From assembly GCF_988243305.1 (NCBI RefSeq), contig NZ_OZ547136.1: 64,000 bases of DNA, one strand, 5' to 3'. A model generated the notes under the pieces. That model saw only the letters and a program-made list of their open reading frames with translations, did not search any database and was not told the DNA's origin. The translations under genes were made by a program, and so were the position numbers. Positions 6,509-6,835 of the stretch are shown here, piece by piece (position 1 is the stretch's first letter; every line of letters starts with the position of its first letter).

Positions 6509-6607
6509 ACCTGTCGTGACTGATGCCCTCCCTGACTCTGAGTCTGCTCACAAAAGCACTGTTTTCGTTACTGTCTCTCTTGTCCGTGCAATAGCTCAAT
6601 AATAGAA

Positions 6608-6652
6608 TAAAACGATCGATATCTATTTTATCGATCGTTTATATCGATCGAT
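6608..6652. promoter_or_regulatory. agn43 phase-variation switch: three closely spaced GATC Dam sites (OxyR operator region)
   Basis: Sequence aaaacGATCgatatctattttatcGATCgtttatatcGATCgataagc lies about 190 bp upstream of the flu ATG; three GATC sites in this spacing are the documented Dam/OxyR switch of agn43. Confidence 0.7.
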
Positions 6653-6835
6653 AAGCTAATAATAACCTTTGTCAGTAACATGCACAGATACGTACAGAAA
6701 GACATTCAGGGAACAACAGAACCACAATTCAGAAACTCCCACAGCCGGACCTCCGGCACTGTAACCCTTTACCTGCCGGTATCCACGTTTGTGGGTACCG
6801 GCTTTTTTATTCACCCTCAATCTAAGGAAAAGCTG

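Follow-up and report, generated by a model that had tools for sequence, protein, structure and literature searches.

The closest described relative of the locus considered here is the agn43 (flu) gene of Escherichia coli K-12, for which the mechanism of the OxyR/Dam switch has been worked out (PMC4872104, PMC13337833, PMC2909390, PMC3764049). The gtr and opvAB loci of Salmonella are likewise set by OxyR and Dam, and their ON and OFF states are heritable and independent of the oxidation of OxyR (PMC2909390, PMC4856963). IsrC, the small RNA annotated next to agn43 in K-12, is treated in the literature as part of flu attenuation or antitermination (PMC5811629, PMC5389530). The locus compared with these systems lies in a stretch of 64,000 nucleotides, referred to below as the window (contig NZ_OZ547136.1 of NCBI RefSeq assembly GCF_988243305.1), and occupies the 327 nucleotides between positions 6509 and 6835.

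This region is very probably the canonical regulatory region of E. coli agn43 (flu), IsrC being the attenuated agn43 leader made from the shared promoter. Positions 6509–6860 were aligned without gaps with positions 2071212–2071564 of K-12 MG1655; 351 of 352 positions were identical, and the sole mismatch was located at 6618. Three GATC sites are present: GATC-I at 6614–6617, GATC-II at 6633–6636 (19 bp past GATC-I), and GATC-III at 6646–6649 (13 bp past GATC-II). An earlier annotation made from the letters alone (the sequence-only reading) had taken the sites at about 6614, 6633 and 6646 to be the Dam/OxyR switch known from K-12 agn43, to be checked by alignment with the K-12 regulatory region and the isrC annotation. 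The alignment bears this assignment out, with one base of difference from K-12 in a 37-bp site and with K-12 isrC falling on 6614–6808. No feature of the sequence contradicts the canonical agn43 reading.

For comparison, 13 alleles were collected: that of the window, that of K-12, seven further agn43 alleles, a pseudogene with AIDA repeats, the cah allele of O157, and two cah alleles from plasmids, one of which was taken from a conjugative Klebsiella IncF plasmid. Between 5507 and 10016, GATC occurs only at 6614, 6633 and 6646. Clustering of GATC was nevertheless dropped as evidence, because it proved to be at chance level: random placement of the 199 GATC sites of the window gives an expectation of 0.875 triples within 36 bp per 64-kb window, and the pattern GATC-N15-GATC-N9-GATC with at most one mismatch, which was matched once in the window (exactly), was matched at least once in 27 of 100 shuffles. 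A second triple (34091, 34103 and 34108; 34091–34108, within 21 bp) is consistent with chance in view of the same expectation of 0.875 triples per window. Such numbers, with roughly 0.9 triples expected and a second one in fact present, are what could be put forward for regarding the cluster at 6614–6649 as a coincidence or as a decayed, non-functional remnant. That explanation has practically no probability left, since the site is one base away from the experimentally characterised K-12 region, 12 of the 13 alleles retain the 19/13 spacing in spite of diverged flanks in some, and the promoter, the terminator, the Shine–Dalgarno sequence and the agn43 reading frame are all intact. It was excluded on the basis of the K-12 homology, the conservation among alleles, and a switch pattern with 29 specified bases, which has a single match in the window and was absent from all 100 shuffles. 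The site is thus judged to be real because of its homology to K-12 and not because of the clustering of GATC.

The predicted OxyR binding site containing the three Dam sites extends over 6612–6648 and consists of two half-sites of 15 bp each (6612–6626 and 6634–6648), as would be expected of a site for an OxyR tetramer overlapping the GATC sites. GATC-I is situated within the first half-site, GATC-II opens the second, and GATC-III closes it. When compared with the consensus ATAGnTnnnAnCTAT-N7-ATAGnTnnnAnCTAT, 14 of the 20 specified positions are matched at 6612–6648, which is the tied top score in the 64 kb. The K-12 site has an equal score, because position 6618 is an N position of the consensus. 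Neither the GATC spacing (19/13) nor the half-sites (14/20) are therefore unlike those of K-12, which the sequence-only reading had named as the point on which it could fail. The consensus is also matched at 14 of 20 positions at 6634–6670, one half-site (22 bp) downstream. A third half-site-like block is accordingly seen at 6656–6670, within the motif GCTAATAATAAC, which nine of ten alleles of the agn43 type share and the cah types lack; the block is reminiscent of the three half-sites of Salmonella gtr. The dam and oxyR genes themselves are located outside the 64-kb window. Both belong to the E. coli core genome.

The single intergenic difference from K-12, G instead of A at 6618, immediately follows GATC-I within the first OxyR half-site, and might for this reason be suspected to alter the switch relative to K-12 by changing the affinity for OxyR, the access of Dam to GATC-I, or the stability of the leader RNA. 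With the G, GATCAAT becomes GATCGAT, and 6612–6621 forms a perfect inverted repeat of 10 bp with 6629–6638; the arms 6613–6622 and 6641–6650 are then likewise 100% complementary. The position is, however, unspecified in the OxyR consensus, so that both alleles score equally, and the leader's first 45 nt have a predicted energy of −12.8 kcal/mol with either base. G was found in 10 of the 13 sampled alleles, and searches with the exact 90-nt core returned the G form from 376 genomes and the A form of K-12 from 487. Both forms are common natural alleles and presumably both work. An altered switch is thus unlikely; a functional effect of the difference at 6618 is possible but unsupported.

A scan of positions 5400–7000 gave only one sigma-70-like promoter, that of agn43/isrC at 6580–6608 on the plus strand (−35 TTGTCC at 6580–6585, 17-nt spacer, −10 TAGAAT at 6603–6608). 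Since the last base of the −10 hexamer is 6608 and the OxyR site begins at 6612, bound OxyR would sit at or just past the transcription start. The agn43 5′ leader, which corresponds to IsrC, covers 6614–6808 (plus strand, 195 nt), the transcription start being its first nucleotide and the last residue of the terminator U-tract its final one. Rfam family RF00124 (IS102, the IsrC family; gathering score 46) was matched over its full length (model positions 1–206 of 206) at 6612–6815 on the plus strand with 253.5 bits and an E value of 1e-49, and the RefSeq ncRNA isrC of K-12 (2071317–2071511) was transferred to 6614–6808 through the gap-free alignment. An isrC equivalent overlapping the switch, which the sequence-only reading had suggested as a possibility, is thereby confirmed. 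It begins with the G of GATC-I, 6 nt past the −10 hexamer, and it is located between yeeP and flu, on the strand of flu, with an intrinsic terminator at its end. This terminator (6775–6808, plus strand) is composed of a 12-bp stem (6775–6786/6791–6802), a 4-nt loop and a run of six T (6803–6808), with a hairpin energy of −22.3 kcal/mol. The last T is the 3′ end of IsrC and lies 28 nt ahead of the agn43 ATG at 6836; no promoter-like site was found between the terminator and this ATG.

IsrC is best regarded as an agn43 leader transcript that has been terminated, and not as a separate sRNA gene, because its start is the agn43 transcription start in GATC-I and its end is the leader terminator (the transcription start and the termination of agn43 were taken from secondary citations and RefSeq coordinates). 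With one promoter and a terminator in the leader, IsrC and the agn43 mRNA share a promoter, expression of agn43 needs read-through of the terminator, and IsrC is expected to be switched ON and OFF together with agn43. The strong down-regulation of both isrC and flu in one RNA-seq study (PMC13168525) is what would be expected if both follow the fraction of ON cells in the culture.

A classical attenuator operating as an RNA switch, of the riboswitch-like or the leader-peptide type, was considered and rejected: the leader has the terminator that such an attenuator calls for, but a conserved antiterminator helix capturing a terminator arm was searched for across the alleles and none was found; the predicted partner of the 5′ arm varies from allele to allele (RNA positions 5–10, 28–39, 44–55, 74–82 or 136–146), and these pairings amount to 2–7 kcal/mol, as against −22 kcal/mol for the terminator. 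Read-through must consequently work in some other way, and the region is described here only as a terminator-containing leader.

The 27 nucleotides between the terminator and agn43 (6809–6835, plus strand) contain the conserved block ATTCACCCTC at 6809–6818 and the Shine–Dalgarno sequence AAGGA at 6824–6828. The block is identical in 12 of the 13 alleles, including the cah types with their unrelated leaders, and differs in SCU-387 by one C-to-T change. With RNAalifold, the CCU of ATTCACCCTC was paired with the AGG of the Shine–Dalgarno sequence, a weak helix of 3 bp. ATTCACCCTC may be an element that sequesters the ribosome site, or a protein-binding site. The reading frame of agn43 is free of stops back to an ATG at 6680, so that mechanical calling of open reading frames gives 1091 instead of 1039 aa. 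This ATG was rejected as the agn43 start, which would add 52 codons: other alleles carry +1 and +4 indels between 6680 and 6835, and that stretch is therefore not a conserved coding extension; in addition, the ESPR signal peptide starts from the methionine at 6836.

Among the 13 alleles, only two blocks are conserved, namely the switch (6609–6650) and the segment from the terminator through the start codon (6771–6838); the 120 nt between them diverge and are unrelated in the cah type. The stem of the terminator is invariant except for one change of U·G to U-A, and its loop varies. Of the 11 alleles that were aligned in this part, 8 keep both promoter hexamers, the variants being ET82 (−10 TAGATT), THO-003 (A at the first −10 position) and the O157 cah allele (−35 TTGCGT).

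This pattern bears on a different view of IsrC, according to which it would be a trans-acting sRNA that shares the agn43 promoter, base-pairs with other mRNAs, and relays the ON/OFF state to unlinked genes. The predicted product of termination is a discrete RNA of 195 nt whose 3′ end, a GC-rich hairpin plus a U-tract, is of the kind that bacterial sRNAs usually have, and the fold of IsrC is better than that of shuffled sequences (z = −4.7). Lycopene yield was changed upon repression of IsrC with dCas13a (PMC10783499), an intervention that on the leader would also strike the agn43 mRNA. The cyoD gene has been hypothesised to be a target from an IntaRNA prediction alone (PMC13168525), and the literature found holds no experimentally validated target. 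The middle of IsrC, where a seed would be placed, is precisely its least conserved part. A trans-acting IsrC is disfavoured because the sole conserved parts of the RNA are accounted for by binding of OxyR and Dam at the DNA level and by termination, and base-pairing with other mRNAs is judged improbable. That the terminated leader acts in trans as an epigenetically bistable sRNA, made only in ON cells, is very improbable; if it did, the Dam/OxyR state of agn43 would be coupled to unlinked targets, and ON and OFF lineages would differ in more than their surface Ag43.

On the reading of IsrC as the agn43 leader, the locus would work as follows, with OxyR binding, its dependence on methylation, the switching and the partial termination carried over from the K-12 literature. 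Transcription would start at about 6614 from the one sigma-70 promoter (6580–6608), and the first 36 or so transcribed base pairs would form the OxyR site with its three Dam targets. In the OFF state, OxyR on the unmethylated site would block transcription and shield the GATC sites from Dam. In the ON state, the GATC sites would be methylated, OxyR would be unable to bind, and the promoter would fire. Replication would renew the competition between OxyR and Dam, which would render the state heritable yet reversible. Transcripts made in ON cells would then cross a leader of about 220 nt with a strong terminator 28 nt before the start codon; a stop at the terminator would give the 195-nt IsrC, and read-through would give the agn43 mRNA.

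A search of 5426 complete E. coli genomes detected the 327-nt region in 4064 of them, as many as seven copies being counted in a single genome, and the 90-nt switch core in 2249 genomes. One agn43 allele, that of the APEC strain E19019 (NZ_CP126937.1), has GATC-II changed to AATC, so that two Dam sites remain, spaced by 32 bp. This allele was present, as an exact match over 90 nt, in 12 of the 5426 complete genomes (from avian, human, seawater and wastewater sources), and a sequencing error is improbable because 12 genomes from unrelated sources carry it. The pattern with 29 exact bases gave no match in a collection of one representative genome per species, a weak negative result, since all 29 bases must match and the cah alleles of plasmids, with GTTGCTATCGATC at this place, would escape the pattern; the window and all 11 loci tried were matched. 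No match was obtained in the phage collection, even in distant mode. In the plasmid collection, most of the full-length matches were to records of 1.0–4.9 Mb, apparently mislabelled chromosomes; true plasmids gave short blast matches only, and the two that were inspected carry a diverged switch.

The whole module was observed on the Klebsiella pneumoniae plasmid ps01 (NZ_CP094480.1, 1322–5064), a conjugative plasmid of type IncFIB/IncFII, and also on the E. coli plasmid NZ_MG591698.1. It is made up there of a yeeP-like GTPase gene, three GATC sites spaced 19/13, the leader terminator, and an autotransporter of the Cah family. The presence of the module on plasmids implies that the epigenetic switch moves with the adhesin gene across replicons and genera.

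The gene directly upstream of the switch (5636–6508, plus strand) is an intact yeeP-type GTPase gene of 290 aa with a Pfam MMR_HSR1 match (E value 9e-15). In K-12, yeeP is truncated at its 5′ end, and homology starts about 320 nt into the gene. An 873-nt gene annotated as "GTPase family protein" occupies the yeeP position in the near-identical strain AR_0019, and an annotated 873-nt GTPase gene was found upstream in all nine chromosomal and both plasmid alleles sampled. The intact gene is the norm and the truncated copy of K-12 the exception. The sequence-only reading was thus right in calling yeeP intact, and its view that this made the arrangement worth recording is not upheld, the gene being intact in all of those 11 alleles. 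The yeeP start (5636) is closely preceded by a GC-rich hairpin with a run of T behind it at 5581–5620 (CCCCCGCCACCTTTCCGGTGCGCGGGGTTTTGTCTTTTTT), of which only the core (5592–5606) was flagged in the terminator scan, as weakly terminator-like. This hairpin could insulate yeeP from upstream transcription.

Downstream of the switch, agn43 (flu) is intact (6836–9955, plus strand; 1039 aa) and contains the Pfam domains ESPR, AIDA, AC_1 and Autotransporter; 1030 of its 1039 residues (99%) are identical to those of K-12 Flu, with no gaps. Directly past agn43, an open reading frame of 840 aa was found at 10070–12592. It has no Pfam match at an E value of 0.001, is a hypothetical protein in the near-identical strain, and stands where K-12 has the 510-aa YeeR; its product, a large protein, is conserved in the island and uncharacterised. 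The locus belongs to the island equivalent to CP4-44, which has the same neighbours as in K-12, namely tmaR, sbmC, dacD and sbcB. Elsewhere in the window, Rfam matches above threshold were obtained for STnc240 (27230–27304, minus strand), the histidine operon leader (30042–30165, plus strand), a JUMPstart element (54123–54161, minus strand), and two tandem copies of the REP-type naRNA4 (60718–60885, plus strand). Together with the sbcB–dacD neighbours, these matches place the window on a stretch of the chromosome that continues through the his operon.

The sequence-only reading is accordingly supported but refined in two respects: IsrC, which it gave as a possible sRNA locus, is the leader of agn43, and an intact yeeP is normal. 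It had described the arrangement as known, and this is correct, as the switch is the well-studied one of E. coli agn43 and everything found here is known already; the finding is correct but ordinary and adds nothing beyond known biology. Its value is for annotation. This copy of agn43 should be entered as phase-variable, as predicted from its sequence, and the intergenic region should receive an isrC/agn43-leader feature. No feature was annotated in this region in the PGAP-annotated genomes among the matches listed, nor in the 11 regions that were fetched, that of AR_0019 included. In RNA-seq data, the levels of isrC and flu should reflect the mixture of ON and OFF cells in the culture and not a regulatory response.

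Compared with the described systems, the locus is closest to K-12 agn43 (flu, b2000) with isrC (b4435) in the cryptic prophage CP4-44. The promoter, the GATC sites, the OxyR site, the leader, the terminator, the Shine–Dalgarno sequence, the start codon and the chromosomal site are the same, and Ag43 is 99% identical. K-12 differs in the A at 6618, in its 5′-truncated yeeP, and in a less complete island, which encodes the 510-aa YeeR where the 840-aa reading frame is found here; the island of AR_0019 additionally carries IrmA, DUF905, DUF932 and antirestriction genes. The cah locus, known from O157:H7 and from IncF plasmids, encodes a calcium-binding autotransporter. It shares with the present locus the upstream GTPase gene, the −10 hexamer, three GATC sites spaced 19/13, an identical terminator stem, the ATTCACCCTC block, the Shine–Dalgarno sequence and the first codons, and differs in the middle of its leader, which is unrelated and about 30 nt longer, in its −35 hexamer (TTGCGT), and in a passenger of another subfamily. 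Salmonella gtr and opvAB are alike in that OxyR is set against Dam at GATC sites within OxyR half-sites (PMC2909390, PMC4856963). In these Salmonella systems, four GATC sites and three or four half-sites for OxyR precede the promoter, and OxyR serves as both activator and repressor, whereas the agn43 locus described here has only one site, a repressor site that follows the −10 hexamer, and no sequence homology to them. All features by which the agn43 Dam/OxyR switch and the Rfam IS102/IsrC family are defined, in so far as they can be read from sequence, are present at this locus, which is thus predicted to be a switch of the agn43 type.
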